A stretch of 64,000 bases of DNA from Mustelus asterias (lineage: Eukaryota): positions 90,334,001-90,398,000 of the forward strand of contig NC_135808.1 of assembly GCF_964213995.1 (NCBI RefSeq), in the 5' to 3' direction. Position 1 is the stretch's first letter, and every line of letters begins with the position of its first letter. The notes under the pieces are model-generated. The model saw only the letters and a program-made list of their open reading frames with translations. It searched no databases and was not told where the DNA came from. The translations under genes and the position numbers were made by a program. Shown here one piece after another: positions 49,701 through 62,296 of this stretch.

Positions 49701-50902
49701 TTCAGTAAGATCACTTCTGATTCTTTTTTCAAGACACTCCTCAAAACCTACTTCTTTGATCTTGGAAGTAATATCAACATGAGGGAAGACTTATTCACCA
49801 TGAGTGGTTATGAACTAGAGTAAAATTCTCTAGCAGAGAGCCAGAGCAGACATGAGGGGCTGAATGGTGCCCATCTGTACTATAATAATTCTGTGAAGTA
49901 ATGTTGCTCAGTGTCTAATTTTGCTTTCTAGCACTCCCGTGTAGCACCTTGGGGCATTTTAATATCCTAAAGCTGCGACATAAATATAAGCTGTTGATAT
50001 AGAGATGCTTGCATTTAAAATTAGCAGCTTCAGGCCAAGTGAAATATACAACTAGCAAAATGACTCACTGGAAACCCAAGTCTGACCTGCAACCCCTGTC
50101 ATCTTGGCCAAGGGCAACGGGCACATCAGAACAACACCTGAAATTCTCACACCATCCTGACTTGAAAATATATCCCCCGTCCTTAATCATTGCAGGGTCA
50201 ATATCCTGGGACATCCTAACAGCAGTGTGTGCCTACAGAAGAACAACAAACTTGCATTTATGTGGTGCCTTTAGCAGAATTAAACACCCCAGGGCACTTC
50301 ACAGCGACATTATAAAAGAAAATATTCCGGAGATATTAGCTCATAATGGACAAAGAGGCAAGTCCTTAATCATTTCTTGCTCCAAAAAAACCCCAATTCA
50401 AATTGAATCCAATTCATGGTCCCCAGGTGAGAAACATTCTAGATCCAAGCTGACAAAGAACAGGCTTGATCCTACACTAGTTTGCAAATAGTTAACTGTT
50501 GTTAAATGTTAAAAGGGGCATCCAGCAATGTGAATGTGCCAGCAAGCCTCCATTCAAACTATAGCTGACTGCTGCAGGAAGCCAGGAATGAATCACTTTC
50601 TGTTCCTGTTTTGTAAACTCCTCCTGCCTTGGTGTGAAGAGTTAAGCAGCAGTTCTGCGAGCTGCACCCACAAGTTTACCAGACGATCTTTCACCCAGTG
50701 ACCTGCCAAGAGAACAAGGCAGGAGGGAGGTGGAGGTTTTGGACACTGACCGCGGCAGGCTCTTTTGGAAATGGTTGGTGGGCACGATGCTCCTGTGCAG
50801 ATACTCAGTGTCTGGGCTGGAGCTGCTGCTCCGGGTCAGCCGCAGCGCGCCGGCTCTGCCCAGCCCTCTACTGAACGTGGAAGCGACCCGCAGCACAGCC
50901 AT
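40454..50902 (-). CDS. CPT2: Carnitine O-palmitoyltransferase 2, mitochondrial, 5 exons, 658 aa
   Basis: complement(join(40454..40785,42915..44219,45218..45324,47213..47293,50751..50902)) = 1977 nt; Arg/Ser-rich presequence, SLPRLPIP, RWFDKS, catalytic [25 protein letters not shown]. Confidence 0.98.
41095..41360 (+). mobile_element. V-domain SINE, alternative tail
   Basis: Family consensus match. Confidence 0.85.
41976..42760 (-). mobile_element. Old non-LTR retrotransposon 3' fragment in CPT2 intron 4
   Basis: [17 protein letters not shown] and MQYSPLACM remnants; 3' end resembles the tail of the 4577-type SINE. Confidence 0.65.
42915..44219 (-). CDS. CPT2: CPT2 exon 4 (1305 nt)
   Basis: [19 protein letters not shown]...KEAAM; lies within ORF 42694..44205; donor gtaagt. 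Confidence 0.98.
44714..44845. mobile_element. ~130-bp MITE-like element
   Basis: Imperfect TIR TAGGATGGAATTTTACCAGCACGTCCGCCC / GGGCGGGCGTGCCGGTAATATTCCGGCCATA. Confidence 0.7.
45218..45324 (-). CDS. CPT2: CPT2 exon 3
   Basis: [35 protein letters not shown](G). Confidence 0.96.
46712..47070 (-). mobile_element. V-domain SINE
   Basis: Reverse complement of the family consensus. Confidence 0.85.
47213..47293 (-). CDS. CPT2: CPT2 exon 2
   Basis: [26 protein letters not shown](R). Confidence 0.96.
48528..48910 (+). mobile_element. tRNA-derived SINE (family B)
   Basis: A box GTGGCACAGTGG, B box GGTTCGAATCCC; tail GGGATGGGCAATAAATGCTGGCC. Confidence 0.8.
50751..50902 (-). CDS. CPT2: CPT2 exon 1 (coding part)
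   Basis: [15 protein letters not shown]...TNHFQKSLP(R); donor gtcagt. Confidence 0.93.
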
Positions 50903-53729: not shown

Positions 53730-55180
53730 TAACTCAAAAGGTAACAGATAAGTCTGAATGAATTACCTTTTCCCCTGAAAGGTCCCAATTTTCACTGTGT
53801 TGTAATCAGCAAGCTTGAAGTTGCTTGTTGTCTGTGATTCATGGTCTACCTTTCAAAAAAAACACAAAAATACACTCGGCTTGGAGCCAAATGAATTAAT
53901 TTGGTCTGGATGTATCTTGTCAATTTCTCAATCAGCAAATTAGATACGTGATGAATTGAACAGAAAACAGTGAAATCTTTGCCAGTTGGAAAAACAGAAC
54001 AAAAGTTTTCAAATGTAATGACATCATCACTTGCCCTTAAAAATAACTATGGAATAAAGGAGGGAGCACATGCTCTTCTTCACTAAAGAGCACTGTCCTC
54101 AAATTCCAAGCTTAAGATCATCTTTTTATTTTCACCATTTGAACTAAGAACTAACCAAGCTCAAACTAGTTATTTCCAAATTATATACTTTTATTTTTTT
54201 AATTTCTATTTACTTTCTGAGAAGTTATGTACATATATATCTTGAGCAATGATTGTGGCCCAGCAACCATGCCCAAATTAAGGAATTTCAAACATTTGCC
54301 TTGTTTCAAATTACACCTTAAAACCAGCTCACAACTCCCATTTGATCTTAAAACATTAATGCTGGCAACACAACAAAGGAAAATCCACACAAATTAGACA
54401 CTCACTCACTTATGGAAGTTTCCCAACACATCACCTCCACAACTTTAAACTTTGCTTTCATTCAATCTCAACAGTTTAAAATTGAAATAAAAATAGAACA
54501 TTCAAAGAAAACAAAGGCAATAGATTAAGACAGTGTCTTCATTCTTCTTTCTTCAAAAATTGCAATTAAAACTCAAAGAAAAAGATAAACTCTCAACATC
54601 GCAAGTTTAATAATCAACTGTCACAGATAGCCTTTAAAGTGGAACCAAAGTGTCAAACATTGCATTTCATTGCCTAGAATCTTTATCTCCCGCCAGAGTA
54701 AAACAATTGCTTTAACAACTCTTCTTTCATTTTATCACAACTTATCCTACTCTTCACTTAACCCAATTCAAAATACAACTACATACATTGGACAAGCATT
54801 TTTAAAACAGCCATCAGGACCAGACCACAGAGGGTTAACTAATACAATTCAATGACACAGACATTAGACACAAACCCACAGACAAGAAAAGTCACACAGA
54901 CTCTGCAACACACAGACAACAATTTACTCAACACATGTTTTGCTTTCCTCGAATTCGACATTATGTTTTAAATGTGCACTTAGAATGCAGTAATTCAAAT
55001 CTTTTCCATATTGTTAGTTAACTTTTCCAAACTCATCTACCATTCCTCCCCAATCTATATCTCCATCCATCGGTTTGTCACTATCTCCATCCATCCCTCG
55101 ATCCCCAAAGGTGCACATCATACCCCTTTGGACTGAGAATAGAGACTTTAACTTGTCTATCTCCCTCTGACACATATCTG

Positions 55181-55401
55181 TGATGCTCCATTGATTCACG
55201 CAAAGACTAGAGGTTGCGGAACAACAGGCTTTTATTAACAAGAACAGAAGCACTCCCAAACCGATGGCCAACTCGAACTGAGGCAAAGGGGCGGAGAGCA
55301 GCCACCTTTATACCCCGAGGAGGGCGGAGCCCCGGACCAAGGCAGCAGGGGCGTGCCCAGGCACATCCCACACACAGACAGTGTTACAGTGGTTTACCAC
55401 A
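55181..55401 (-). repeat. Gypsy 3' LTR
   Basis: Direct repeat of 59353-59572, preceded by the PPT. Confidence 0.93.
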
Positions 55402-55474
55402 TTCACCCCCTGTTTAAAAAGCGTTCGGCGGGGGCGAGGTGGTGGAAACGACAGTCACAAGTTATTGATTCAAA

Positions 55475-58400
55475 TTACAAGTTCAGTCTCTCCGGGGGCT
55501 TGAACTGCCACTGCGACCGCCGCAGTGTCAGCCGTGGCGCCGGTTCAGGAGGCCACGGCGATGAGTCAGACGCATCGCTCTCCGTAGTGCCTTCAGACTG
55601 CCGGGTGTGTGGATGCTGCTCCTGGGGCTCAGGCGTGCCGTACACGGGGGTCAGATGCGCGTGCTGCGACACTGGTGCATCATGGACAACGTTTGGAGCT
55701 GGGGGTGAGGGGCAATGGGACATATTACCTGCAGGGGCCAGATCGCGAATGGAAACCGTGTCCTCCCGCCCGTCGTGATACGCCACATAGGCGTATTGGG
55801 GGTTGGCGTGGAGGAGCCGGACCGTTTCGACCAGGGGTCTGATTTATGGGTCCGCACGTGCTTCCGGAGCAGGACAGGGCCAGGAGACGTCAGCCACGAC
55901 GGTAGTGAGGTCCCCGAGGAGGACTTTCTGGGGAAAACAACCATTCGTTCATGAGGGGTGGAGTTGGTAGCCGTGCACAGTAGTGACCTAATTGAGTGTA
56001 GCGCATCAGGGAGGACCTCTTGCCAGCGGGAGACTGGAAGACCCTTAGACCGGAGAGCTAATAAAACGGACTTCCAGACTGTCGCATTCTCCCTCTCCAC
56101 CTGTCCGTTCCCCCTGGGGTTGTAGCTGGTGGTCCTACTCGAGGCTATGCCTTTGGAGAGTAGGTACTGGCGCAGCTCGTCACTCATAAAAGAGGAACCC
56201 CGGTCGCTATGAATATAGCTGGGGAAACCAAACAGGGTGAAGAGGCTGTGCAGGGCCCTGATGACCATGGCCGAGGTCATATCCAGGCAGGGGATAGCAA
56301 AGGGGAACCCCGAATATTCATCAACGACGTTGAGGAAGTAGACGTTGCGGTTAGAGGAGGGGAGGGGGCCTTTGAAGTCAACGCTCAGGCATTCGAAAGG
56401 GCGGGTGGCTTTGATGAGGTGCACTCTGTCCGGCCGGTAGAAGTGCGGCTTGCACTCTGCGCAGACTTGGCAGTGCCTGGTTACAGACCTGACTTCCTCG
56501 ATGGAATAGGGCAGGTTCCGGGCCTTGGTGAAATGGAAGAACCTGGTAACCCCCGGGTGGCAGAGGTCATCGTGGAGAGTCTGTAACCGGTCTAGGTTCG
56601 CGCTGGCACAGGTCCCCCGGGACAGGGCGTCTGGGGGCTCATTGAGCTTCCCAGACCGGTGTAAAATGTTGTAATTGTAGGTGGAGAGCTCGATCCTCCA
56701 CCTCAAAATCTTGTCGTTCTTGATTTTTCCCCGCTGCGCGTTACTGAACATAAAGGCAACGGACTGTTGGTCCGTGAGCAGGGTGAACCGTTCGCCAGCT
56801 AAGTAGTGGCGCCAGTGTCGCACAGCCTCCACGATGGCTTGTGCCTCTTTTTCGACAGAGGAGTGTCGAATTTCAGGGCCCTGGAGGGGGCGCGAGAAGA
56901 AGGCCACGGGTCTGCCCGCCTGGTTAAGAGTGGCGGCTAGGGCAAAATCAGACGCATCGCTCTCCACCTGGAATGGGGTGGATTCGTCTGCAGCGTGCAT
57001 CGTGGCCTTCGCGATATCCGCTTTGATGCGGTCAAAGGCCAGCCGGGCCTCCGCCGCTAGGGGAAAAGATGTGGATTTGATGAGCGGACGGGCTTTGTCC
57101 GCATAATTGGGGACCCACTGGGTGTAGTATGAGAAGAAGCCTAAGCATCTCCTCAGTGCTTTGAGGGTGGTGGGGAGGGGAAGTTCCAGGAGGGGACGCA
57201 TGCGGTCGGGGTCGGGGCCGATGACCCCATTCTCCACAACACAACCAAGGATGGCGAGGCGGCGCGTGCGGAATACACACTTCTCCTTATTGTAGGTCAG
57301 GTTAAGGAGTGCCGCAGTGTGGAGGAATTTTTGGAGGTTGGCGTCGTCGTCCTGCTGATCGTGGCCGCAGATGGTGACGTTATCCAGGTTACGGGAAGGT
57401 GGCCCGCAGCCCGTTCTGGTCCACCATTCGGTCCATCTCACGCTGGAAAACCGAGACCTCATTGGTGACGCCGAAGGGGACCCGAAGGAAGTGGTAGAGA
57501 TGGCCATCCGCCTCGAAGGCAGTGTATTGGCGGTCTTCCGGGCGGATAGGGAGCTGGTGGTATGCAGACTTCAAATCAATGGTGGAGAACACCTGATATT
57601 GCGCAATCTGATTGACTATGTCAGAGATGCGGGGAAGGGGATACACGTCCAACTGCGTGTATCGGTTGATGGTCTGACTGTAGTCAATGACCATGCGAAG
57701 TTTCTCCCCAGTCTTGACAACCACCACTTGGGCTCTCCAGGGGCTGGTACTGGCCTCAATGACCCCCTCCCCCAGGAGGCGTCGCACCTCGGACTTGATG
57801 AACGCTCTATCTCCAGCGCTGTACCGTCTGCTTTTGGTGGCAATGGGCTTGCAGTCGGGGGTGAGGTGTTCAAAGAGCGAGGGAGGGGCGACTTTGAGGG
57901 TCGAGAGACCACAGGTGGTGGGCGGTGGCTGGTCTGTTAGCTGTGGATTTTGGACGGAGATTGGGGGAAAAGGCCCATTATACACCATAGTGATGCTCCC
58001 GAGGTAGCACATGAAATCTAGCCCCAGTAGTACGGCCCGCGAGGAGCCTGCACTTGTTGTACACCGTGCCCCGTACAGTCAGATTTGCTACACAGTACCC
58101 GAGGACATTCACTGACCGGGACCTCGAAGCCATGGCGATTGATTGCTGCATTGGCAGTACTGGCAGTGCGTAGCGCCTCACCGTGTTAGGGTGGATGAAA
58201 CTCTCCGTACTCCCACTACCAAATAAGCAGTTAGTAGTGTGGCCGTTTACCTTGATGTCCATCATCGACCAGGCGAGCTGGTGAGGCCTGGACTGGTCCA
58301 ACGCGACCGAGGCCACTGTCGGATTAAGAGATGCGGTGGACGGTTCCCAAAATGGCGGCACCCGTGAGTCGGCTAACGTCACCCAAGATGGCGGCTCCCG

Positions 58401-59329
58401 TGGGTCGCACATGGCTGATGGCGTCCAAGATGGCGGCCTCCGTGGGTCGCACGCGGCCGCTGGTGTCCAAAATGGTGGCATCTGCGGACCGCACGCGGCC
58501 GATGGCATCAGCGACAGTCCCTCCCGCGGATCGCACGTGGCGCTGCTGGGCCTGGGGGCTGATTTTGCCCTGCAAACCTTCAGGTAGTGACCCTTCTTAC
58601 CGCAGCCAGAGCAGATCGCATCTTTCGCCAGGCAGCGTCGGCGTGGGTGCTTCTCCAGGCCACAGAAGTAGCTTCTCAGGCCTCCGCAGTGGTCAGTTTG
58701 GCTTCGGGACGGGGCGTGGCGTAGGTTTGCGGCCCTCCCGGGTACAGCGATGGCTGCGGTCGCGGTGTCCACGGTGCGCCCTCGTGGTCGGGGGTGTAGG
58801 CCTCGAGGTTCCGGAACACTACCTCCAGCGAGCTGGCAAGTTCCACAGTTTTCTTAAGGTCCAGCCCACCTTGTTCCAGCAGGCGCTGCTGGATATAAGT
58901 CGACCTGATGCCAGCGACAAAGGCATCTCTGATCAGGTCATCGGCGTTTTGGGCGGCTGAAACGGCCTTGCAGTTGCAGGCTCTGCCGAGTGCACGCAGT
59001 TCGCACAGGAATTGTTCAGTCGATTCCCCGGGCTGCTGTCTGTGGGTGACCAGCAGGTGTCTGGCGTAGACTTCGTTCAGTTGCCGGTTGTATTGGCTCT
59101 TGAGGAGATCGATTGCCTCCTGGTAAGTTTCCACGTCTCGGATCAGCGCGAAGACGTGAGCGCTGACGCGGGTGTGGAGAACGTGCAGTTTGTCGATGTC
59201 TGTTACGACGACGGAGGAGGAGGAGGCGATGATGGTATCAAAGCAGCGCAGCCAGTGATCAAAAGAATTAGAGGCACCAATTGCCTGCGGATCCAGATCC
59301 AATTTGTCAAGTTTCAGGAGTTGCTCCAT
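55475..59329 (-). pseudogene. Frameshifted Gypsy gag-pol
   Basis: ORF pieces 58676..59395 (gag), 57978..58772 (CSGCGKKGHYLKVC knuckle; PR motif LFGSGS), 57389..58012 (RT SPWRAQV), 55651..57507 (RT/RH DAS, IN HHCC, VDFKG, HSDRG, VER). Confidence 0.9.
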
Positions 59330-59352
59330 TTCAAAAATTTTGTTAATAAAAT

Positions 59353-59572
59353 TGATGCTCATTGATTCACGCAAAGACTCGTTGTTGCGAAACAACAGGC
59401 TTTTATTAACAAGAACAGAAGCACTCCCAAACCGATGGCCAACTCAAACTGAGGCAAAGGGACGGAGAGCAGCCAACTTTATACCCCGAGGAGGGCGGAG
59501 CCCCGGATTGAGGCAGCAGGGGCGTGCCCAGGCATATCCCATATACAGACAGTATTACAGTGGTTTACCACA
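59353..59572 (-). repeat. Gypsy 5' LTR
   Basis: TGTGG...CATCA on minus strand, with TATAAA and AATAAA; about 14 substitutions and 1 indel versus the other LTR. Confidence 0.93.
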
Positions 59573-62296
59573 ATCTGGTCAGTCGATCTCTGGTACTCCC
59601 GAAGCACCAATTCCCACACTGACTTGTACACTCACACACAGGCATCAAGACTCATGATTTTGATTTTTTTCCCTGGGGATAATCCCTGGCTATCCCAATA
59701 TTATTTGCTTAATCTCAACACGTCTCACATCTTTTACCCCCCTTTTAACACAAAGGGGTCCTTCAAGAAGCTTTTTGTCACTGGCCACCTTCCACACGAT
59801 GGTTCAAATAACCTTTCCCTACTCCTAGACCTCGTCAATGACATGAGAAGTGACTGGGTGTGGGGTCAGGAAGCTCTGTTCCATGGTGGGTTGCACTGAG
59901 GAGGTAGGTAGTCTCCTCACCAAACCTCATTATCAAACCTTCACAGACAGTCTTCCCTCACTAAATTCCCATCCGGTTCCTCCAAGTCATTCAAAGCAGA
60001 TGCGCTGAGCACCCCTCAAGGCTGACTATAGAGTTTATCCTTATCCACTGACCAGTCTACTTCTATGGGTCCTGGACCTCTGCTTAGGCATTACCAGAGT
60101 AACAAACTCACGTCCATAACTTTAAGGTTCGGCACAGTCTAAATTTTACACTTAGTCAACCTTGTTGAATAGCGAGTCCACCCAGGGACACCAAATATCA
60201 CTGGTGTCAACTGACATTATGGACAAAGGCACTCAAATTTTCAAATTATCATACAACAATCTCCTTGATTTTAACTTACAAAATTATCACAAAAATATCA
60301 AAACTCCACTACAAAGGTATCAAAACTTTGTTACACACAAAGTATTCAACCTCTGATCTACTTTGTTATACACAAAATATCTAACCTCTGACCTCCTTCA
60401 TTATGCACAAAATATTCACAAGGTACCAGAAGCTTCACAAAAGTATCCAAGCTCATGACTTGATCATAGATACTACCCATGGTGAGATGATCAGACTCTC
60501 CCCTGGTGGGTTTTGTTCCAGTGTCTTTGAGTCAGAGAATCGGGGTCTTGTTGCTTCTTCTGTGGTAGTTGATCCCAGGTTACCGCTGCCGATGTTTCTT
60601 TACTTCTTTTATACAGATTCTGGTGGCAGTAATGTGTCTTCAGTCACGTAGTCACAGGACAGTCACTAATAAATCCCTGTCTTTTGATCGCGAATGCTCA
60701 GGGAGTCATGTCTCTCTCAGGGGGTTGTATTTCTCTCAGGAGCATGACATACAGGAGTCTGTTCAATCACCTGTCTCTTCAAGGCATAGCAACAGCCACT
60801 GTCCAATCAACTCTTGTGCCCGTACTTCACGGCACATCCTGTTCTTTGCTGATACAGAGTTAGCCATTTTTAACATTAGGTTTTACTGGTGTCTTTATGG
60901 ATACCTATTAGGCTACATTTATTTCTGAGGAGTCATATTGAACTCATAACGTTAACTCTGTTTCTCTCTCCACAGATGCTGCTGGACCTGCCAATTTTCC
61001 AGCATTTTCTGTTTGTATTTCAGGAAAGATATTTGTCTATAACTAAATTCTGTGTGTGGCATGGTTCATTAGTGGAGTCTGGCAGGAATTTGTATGTGGA
61101 TTATTGCTTTTCACTATTGTTTTCAATAATCTCAAAAAAAATGCTAGCAGAGCAAGAAGGTAGCTAGGATATGGGTAATAAATGCCAGCAATACCCACAA
61201 CTCAATTAATCAATGTTATAAAGCAGACTTTCATGCTGTAGTCCTCTGTAGTATTCTATCTGAAAGCTCGTTACAGTGTCTCTCCTGTTATCCCAATTTA
61301 CATTATTGAGTTACAGAAATTTCAGCAGAGGAGGCCATTTACCTGCATCAATCCTAGTTTCCTATTGGAGATGATGACATTAATCCTCTTTCCTCGTTCT
61401 GCCGGCATTCTCTGATATTTTTGTTGTTGAAACAATTCCCTTTTAAGTACTATAACAACCAAATGAAGTAATACATTCCATATTCCAATAACCATTTGAA
61501 GGAAACAAAAACATGGTAAGCTCCCGTGTAGGCTTTTAGTACTAATCCCAATGCTTCAATTGTTATTGATTCATTCACCCAGTGGAAATAGTCATTCATT
61601 TTTGAACCCATTCAAACATTACCATTTGGCATTCTCTTAGCTTTCTGCGCCCACAATTGTGGCTTAATGTTTTCCACAGATTCATCAACACTCCATGTTT
61701 TTCTATTCAACCCACTTTATATGAAGCTCAGAATCAAATATGCCTTTTCCACTAATCCACATTCTTGCGCTCTATCGGCCAAGGTCTCTCCCTTCCTCTA
61801 CTGTGTTGTCCACAGATGGAACCTGGTCTGGGCATCTCATTACCAGGCTAATGTGTCACATTGTGATTCTAGTTTAATTTGTTAAAATTAACACTTTGAT
61901 TTTTTTTTTAAATTTGGGGGGTTGAAATGCAAGGGAAACTATTCTAGGAGTAACTGTTTTTAATCAATATTACGCTGTGTTTTTAATTAGTTTACATGTT
62001 CTCTAGAATCATTTGGAATATTTTACTCCTAAAACCGAGGCTCGCAGAACTCAAGCCTTCGTGTTCAATAATCGTCTTTGATTCTTAATGAATTCTCTGA
62101 TAATGGGATTAGAGTCATCAGTGTGGGATAATAATGACAGCTGGTGTGTGCTTTCTATTTGACGAAGTTTGGCTTGGAGATCAGCGGTAGCGGGTAAAGC
62201 GCAATGAAGGGACATTCGAGCTGAGCCCCTGTTTGCGAGCAGCCACACGACTGCTGCTATCTACATGGGACTAGCGGTCTCTTAAAGCCGGGCACG

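Follow-up and report, generated by a model that had tools for sequence, protein, structure and literature searches.

A candidate self-priming site complementary to its own LTR in a non-chromodomain Ty3/Gypsy clade from Mustelus asterias and other animals

In this study, we analysed a 64,000-nucleotide stretch of Mustelus asterias DNA (the window) and found on its minus strand a broken Ty3/Gypsy element of ~4.4 kb (59572-55181). The domain order, the paired TG...CA LTRs, the purine tract and the target duplication place it in Ty3/Gypsy. The two LTRs are identical in 206 of 221 aligned columns. Pfam domains follow one another as protease (a weak match), RT, RNase H and integrase, and because they are scattered over several frames this copy is dead. 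The initial annotation, made from the letters alone, had placed the element in a non-chromodomain lineage, which is borne out: none of the five proteins searched, the window's C-terminal frame included, matched the Chromo domain at E 0.1. Between gag and protease lie four imperfect 42-base repeats (58335-58538). About 4.3 kb downstream of the element, on the same strand, a 52-residue frame (50747-50902, minus strand) shows similarity (E 0.012) to exon 1 of carnitine palmitoyltransferase 2. The features of the element, from its 5' end, are as follows.

59573..59577, no strand: target-site duplication, upstream copy, 5 bp
59353..59572, minus strand: 5' LTR, 220 bp, TG...CA
59478..59483, minus strand: TATA box, promoter predicted from sequence, kept in 5/5 host families examined
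59447..59452, minus strand: initiator-like motif, with the RNA start predicted at 59450, 38 bases before the arm
59401..59412, minus strand: LTR arm, predicted 3' end of the self-primer, with AATAAA at 59407-59402
At or within 2 bases of 59401/59400, minus strand: predicted cut, from the fold-back junctions of a sister family
59376..59400, minus strand: imperfect hairpin P2, which begins immediately behind the arm and takes in the small stem 59396-59391/59386-59381
59352, minus strand: one-base spacer (A) that separates the primer site from the LTR-terminal CA
59340..59351, minus strand: predicted primer-binding site, a 12-mer exactly complementary to the arm, with no tRNA-type TGG
55475..59329, minus strand: gag-protease-RT-RNase H-integrase, broken into five reading-frame segments, no chromodomain found
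55402..55411, minus strand: polypurine tract, directly before the 3' LTR
55181..55401, minus strand: 3' LTR, 221 bp, which carries the arm and has host DNA directly behind it, so that no local pairing is possible
55176..55180, no strand: target-site duplication, downstream copy, 5 bp

The initial annotation had described an element that lacks a tRNA-type primer-binding site, starts gag about 23 nt behind its LTR, and carries a perfect 12-bp complement to a part of that LTR which contains AATAAA. All of this holds in the window. The gag ATG lies at 59329, separated from the LTR by 23 bases; the only TGG in the 52 bases behind the 5' LTR is one overlapping this ATG; and 59351-59340 pairs without a mismatch to 59412-59401, AATAAA included. 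A match of 12 bases arose by chance in 5 of 20,000 dinucleotide-simulated LTRs. The local fold of the whole region is not unusually stable (z = -0.31 versus shuffles), so the signal is placed complementarity rather than folding energy, and an Rfam search at the junction for an RNA family or ribozyme gave one chance-level match only. The small stem that had also been described is present in the window, but its 3' half is often different in other copies.

Complementarity is kept across the host genome, at 10-12 of 12 positions in all located copies among the 60 fetched. Searching by DNA gave 2,513 candidates, of which 40 were scored and the best 30 fetched, the window among them; 20 of these pair at 12/12, 8 at 11/12 and 2 at 10/12. 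Searching by Gag gave 150 matches, and the 30 further copies fetched fall into five LTR families, with 22 pairing at 12/12, 5 at 11/12 and 2 at 10/12, and one not located. Matched changes on both sides of the helix are found between the five host families and also within single copies (L149, L155 and L169). Three copies show mixed letters at arm positions 7-8: in L146 and L158 the arm and the site carry the letters of different variants, and in L186 the second LTR carries those of another variant. Co-packaged RNAs that primed or recombined with each other could account for this, as could mutation at a later time. With 2,513 (DNA) and 14,669 (Gag) first-look candidates in at least five LTR families, these elements are very abundant in the host, and since many copies also retain long open frames, the clade appears to be young there.

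The pairing extends to the clade as a whole. We assembled 112 metagenome and genome-bin loci together with the window and anchored elements on Gag, not on pairing, by a Gag profile built with 10 seeds; this gave 31 starts, of which three near a contig end were dropped (n = 28). Among these 28 elements, several of which share a family with others and so are not independent cases, 23 have at least nine uninterrupted Watson-Crick pairs between the bases behind a CA and sequence further upstream, compared with 0/122 control positions, and 22 have at least 11; with the 10 seeds left out, 13 of 18 still reach at least nine. Three of the five unpaired elements are damaged copies of paired families (one or two changes), one keeps the site with a rearranged LTR, and L083, in which Gag is present, has neither.

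Letters and register were compared in 23 family representatives, several of them related, which were chosen by a finder demanding nine pairs and a CA-A/T-TTT start, so that positions 1-9 pair by construction. The helix measures 11-18 bp, and its mean length is 14.0 with an element's own arm versus 4.2 with the arm of another family. Several pair types occur at positions 4-13, and there are ~20 different sites, each matching its own LTR and not those of others. The initial annotation had asked whether the pairing covaries in relatives; it does so clade-wide, with different letters at a fixed register, the one-base offset being present in 22 of the 23 paired elements of the Gag-anchored set. G-U pairs account for 2 of 324 pairs in the main helix versus 17 of 79 in the neighbouring hairpin, and such near absence would follow if every cycle renewed the site by copying the primer. 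GCCT or ACCT stands directly behind the arm in 18/23 families, and in 17/23, where 5.7 would be expected, a hairpin of at least four pairs begins immediately after the arm. The loop between arm and site is only 21-70 bases long. The pairing of site and arm is real, clade-wide and probably functional.

In a tree of RT-RNase H (66 rows, 8 low-coverage rows dropped, no Tf1/sushi reference among them), paired elements occur throughout a 47-tip clade with support 0.96. Three elements with a TGG site (L124, L128 and L197) fall outside this clade, and its sister or deepest branch, L110, pairs as well. The distant members L053, L055 and L110 pair over 14, 15 and 11 bp, with a two-base spacer and no RCCT motif. 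Among named proteins, those of sharks and rays are closest, followed by those of cnidarians, tunicates, echinoderms, molluscs and one nematode, and by a rotifer relative. Clade members L111-L121 lie in contigs filed as bacterial genome bins, most likely as host contamination. No relatives of the element were found in viral contigs, and the ESM Atlas returned only matches to unnamed Gag-like clusters.

Taken together, the 12-base site is likely where the primer binds in a retrotransposon that primes itself without a tRNA, a reading to which we assign a probability of about 0.85. In the proposed mechanism, the 5' region of the RNA would fold so that the arm lies on the site, the RNA would be cut right behind the arm, solely by analogy with Tf1 by the element's own RNase H, and the freed 3' end of the arm would prime minus-strand DNA. 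Judging from promoter motifs, the primer in the host families would be capped and ~50-65 bases long, with only its last 12-15 bases paired. Next, the ~50-base strong-stop DNA would be transferred to the RNA 3' end by means of the 15-25 bases that separate the cut from the poly(A) site. Self-priming had already been suggested by the initial annotation, and it is now supported by covariation at fixed register, the near absence of G-U and a set of fold-back insertions.

In the window's family, three loci consist of an LTR, then an A, then an inverted copy, which begins at the arm end and reaches back as far as the LTR start. A clean 5-bp duplication marks one of these loci, another is truncated, and the third lies behind a 3' LTR with pol upstream; allowing two mismatches added none to these three. 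A copy of the primer site behind a 3' LTR can derive only from a copied primer. Any plus-strand DNA with a primer-site copy at its end can nevertheless give rise to such long fold-backs, and they are silent on which LTR primes. A sister family in the same genome has one locus of this long type (L267) and five short fold-backs at five different sites (L268-L271 and L273). On one strand, the short type shows the LTR end followed by minus-strand sequence of 23 + 27 bases, which stops at the base behind the arm; a fold-back over the 23 comes next and continues through the spacer and the arm's complement into the remainder of the LTR. Target duplications flank all five: exact at three loci, with a single mismatch at the fourth and interrupted at the fifth. 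The inserted copies match the subfamily letters of their respective loci (0-2 mismatches), which requires no fewer than two separate events. In the simplest reading, minus-strand strong-stop DNA had run off a template cut at the arm boundary, within an ambiguity of 1-2 bases, had then folded on its own hairpin and had gone on to copy the arm that had primed it. The fold point is also the base of hairpin P2, and the hairpin alone could set it. Short fold-backs gave 0 matches in the window's family and in a third family, and in the third family no fold-back of any type was found. The fold-back element that includes internal sequence (L265:3960-4060 and 8050 onward) has a flanking duplication several tens of bases long, not 5, which suggests non-standard integration at one of its ends.

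From pairing, covariation, register, hairpin and fold-backs we infer two things: the arm serves as primer, and the arm boundary is where the template stops. The primer might instead be derived from the element and yet not be the 5' arm in cis, coming from the 3' LTR copy, from a co-packaged RNA or from short transcripts of solo LTRs. Long fold-backs that run through U3 to the LTR start would be the direct product of a 3' LTR primer, but plus-strand strong-stop DNA folding on itself explains them too; likewise, the few sites that match the arm of another variant (L146 and L158) may be later mutations. The short fold-backs, moreover, need a template ending at the arm boundary of the 5' copy, and the short loop favours pairing in cis. 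On balance, we consider an element-derived primer other than the 5' arm in cis improbable.

An initiator A lies at TATA+31 to +33 in 5/5 host families, and the RNA start is predicted 36-50 bases upstream of the arm in all five, which would place the arm inside the RNA. In L046, a TATA-like run lies 26-33 bases before the arm. An A/T-G-pyrimidine motif is seen at arm position -11, and helix position 10 is G-C in 21/23 representatives (G on the arm); an RNA start at -11, as in Tf1, is nevertheless unlikely, as pairing reaches positions 12 and 13 in 22/23 and 21/23. The long unpaired leader of the primer would produce a flap at second-strand transfer, which is unexplained and counts against self-priming in this form.

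The initial annotation had further proposed that the same helix hides the poly(A) site of the 5' LTR. This idea stands in part, since AATAAA or ATTAAA occurs at the arm end in 14/23 families; in the other nine the arm has neither, and in two of these the hexamer sits unpaired in the loop. Occlusion could even be the sole function of the helix, with something else as primer: a helix is predicted with a mean pair probability of 0.88-0.99, and asymmetry between the two ends is built in, as the complement exists behind the 5' LTR alone. Occlusion, however, requires neither a fixed one-base register nor avoidance of G-U, no other primer site is present, and, by the fold-backs, minus-strand DNA has the arm at its 5' end. 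Together with the nine arms lacking a signal, this makes poly(A) hiding as the only role very unlikely. Where the arm does have the signal, the helix of a self-primed element may hide it as well, in the 5' LTR only, at somewhat less than even odds in our estimate; hiding is at most a possible second role, not the conserved one.

Priming by a host tRNA, tRNA half or other small RNA, with an incidental LTR match, is the least credible reading: tRNA halves do prime some elements according to the available text of PMC6317226, and the 63 host tRNA sequences scanned cover 8 amino acids only, but the best anchored match among them to the site, a comparison proposed at the outset, was 4 bases, such a primer would need a 3' end of AAA instead of CCA, and covariation among ~20 sites largely refutes it.

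In the available portions of the literature found, Gypsy self-priming is tied to Tf1/sushi chromoviruses and proven for Tf1 only. If self-priming holds here, an abundant non-chromodomain clade with a different architecture, which by its protein relatives spans sharks, rays, cnidarians, tunicates, echinoderms, molluscs and nematodes, would imply that priming without a tRNA is common and has probably originated more than once. Regulation by tRNA fragments would presumably not reach self-primed elements, and they would be overlooked by LTR finders that require a tRNA site. Furthermore, the fold-back insertions predict the cut position to within two bases, so that the mechanism can be tested directly. 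Our search, outside which lay several older key papers and Repbase/GyDB, gave no account of self-priming in this clade.

Several known systems share single features with this element. In the 5' LTR context, retroviral poly(A) hairpins, for example that of HIV-1, keep AAUAAA within a helix; in the present clade the opposing strand is formed by the primer site, which lies outside the LTR, and 9/23 arms lack the signal. By size and layout, the clade may be Cigr-1, an element of ~4.2 kb with short LTRs, one frame and a sea-urchin-element-like Gag. A tunicate relative is among the protein matches. The Cigr-1 clade is recorded from Ciona and also from molluscs in the available text of PMC6238403, which, like that of PMC3670739, holds no primer data on it; PMC2774666 gave no text match. 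Identity with the CsRn1 clade was rejected, as those elements are described, in the part of PMC2582038 available, with a tRNA-Trp site and a 4-bp target duplication, in contrast to the absent TGG site and the 5-bp duplication found here. For Skipper, the accessible text of PMC5006619 mentions an unexplained primer site.

The closest comparison is with Tf1/Tf2 of Schizosaccharomyces pombe, Tj1 and the other Tf1/sushi chromoviruses, which, as far as the accessible portions of the papers tell, are likewise Ty3/Gypsy elements without a tRNA site (PMC7175516, PMC10085805, PMC4600332, PMC11042837) and likewise have an LTR segment of at least 11 bases complementary to a site behind the 5' LTR. In Tf1, the RNA's first 11 bases pair with the site and are then cut off (PMC7175516, available text), and about half of its cDNA keeps a copy of the site at the 3' end (PMC11042837, available text), which parallels the long fold-backs. 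Members of Tf1/sushi are described, in the excerpts available, with a chromodomain, a three-duplex pretzel and a primer at the 5' end of the RNA (PMC10085805, PMC4600332, PMC5341516). Here there is no chromodomain, and a local hairpin behind the arm takes the place of the pretzel duplexes. The pretzel structure was rejected across 23 families, with a downstream duplex of -4.4 versus -5.4 kcal/mol for shuffled sequence (p 1.0) and an upstream duplex of -4.3 versus -4.2 kcal/mol (p 0.32). The arm, unlike that of Tf1, is predicted to be internal to the RNA in the five host families and ends in AAA, often as part of a poly(A) signal; the helix is 11-18 bp, and the spacer is one base (two in L053, L055 and L110). 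A search of the host genome for chromoviruses with SH3_Tf2-1 gave other Gypsy types only, one with a TGG-type site, and a Chromo search gave 17 matches, the one examined being a host gene exon. The likeness to Tf1 drawn by the initial annotation therefore stands in the complementarity of the primer site to its own LTR, but not in the pretzel duplexes or, in the five host families, in the predicted position of the arm. By its sequence features the element seems to work like Tf1; we do not assign it to Tf1/sushi.

Self-priming has also been predicted, from complementarity of LTR and site, for plant Tcn1 chromoviruses and for the TAR copia elements Houba and Osr-1, which differ from the clade described here in their plant hosts and their chromovirus or copia backbone, and these cases indicate that the trait recurs in separate lineages (PMC6317226, available text). 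A separate origin from Tf1/sushi, marked by an internal arm ending in a poly(A) signal, a cut at a hairpin junction, a long capped primer, a helix that also silences the 5' poly(A) site, and fold-backs that preserve both the primer-DNA junction and the cut position, is a tentative proposal that we hold to be slightly less probable than its opposite.
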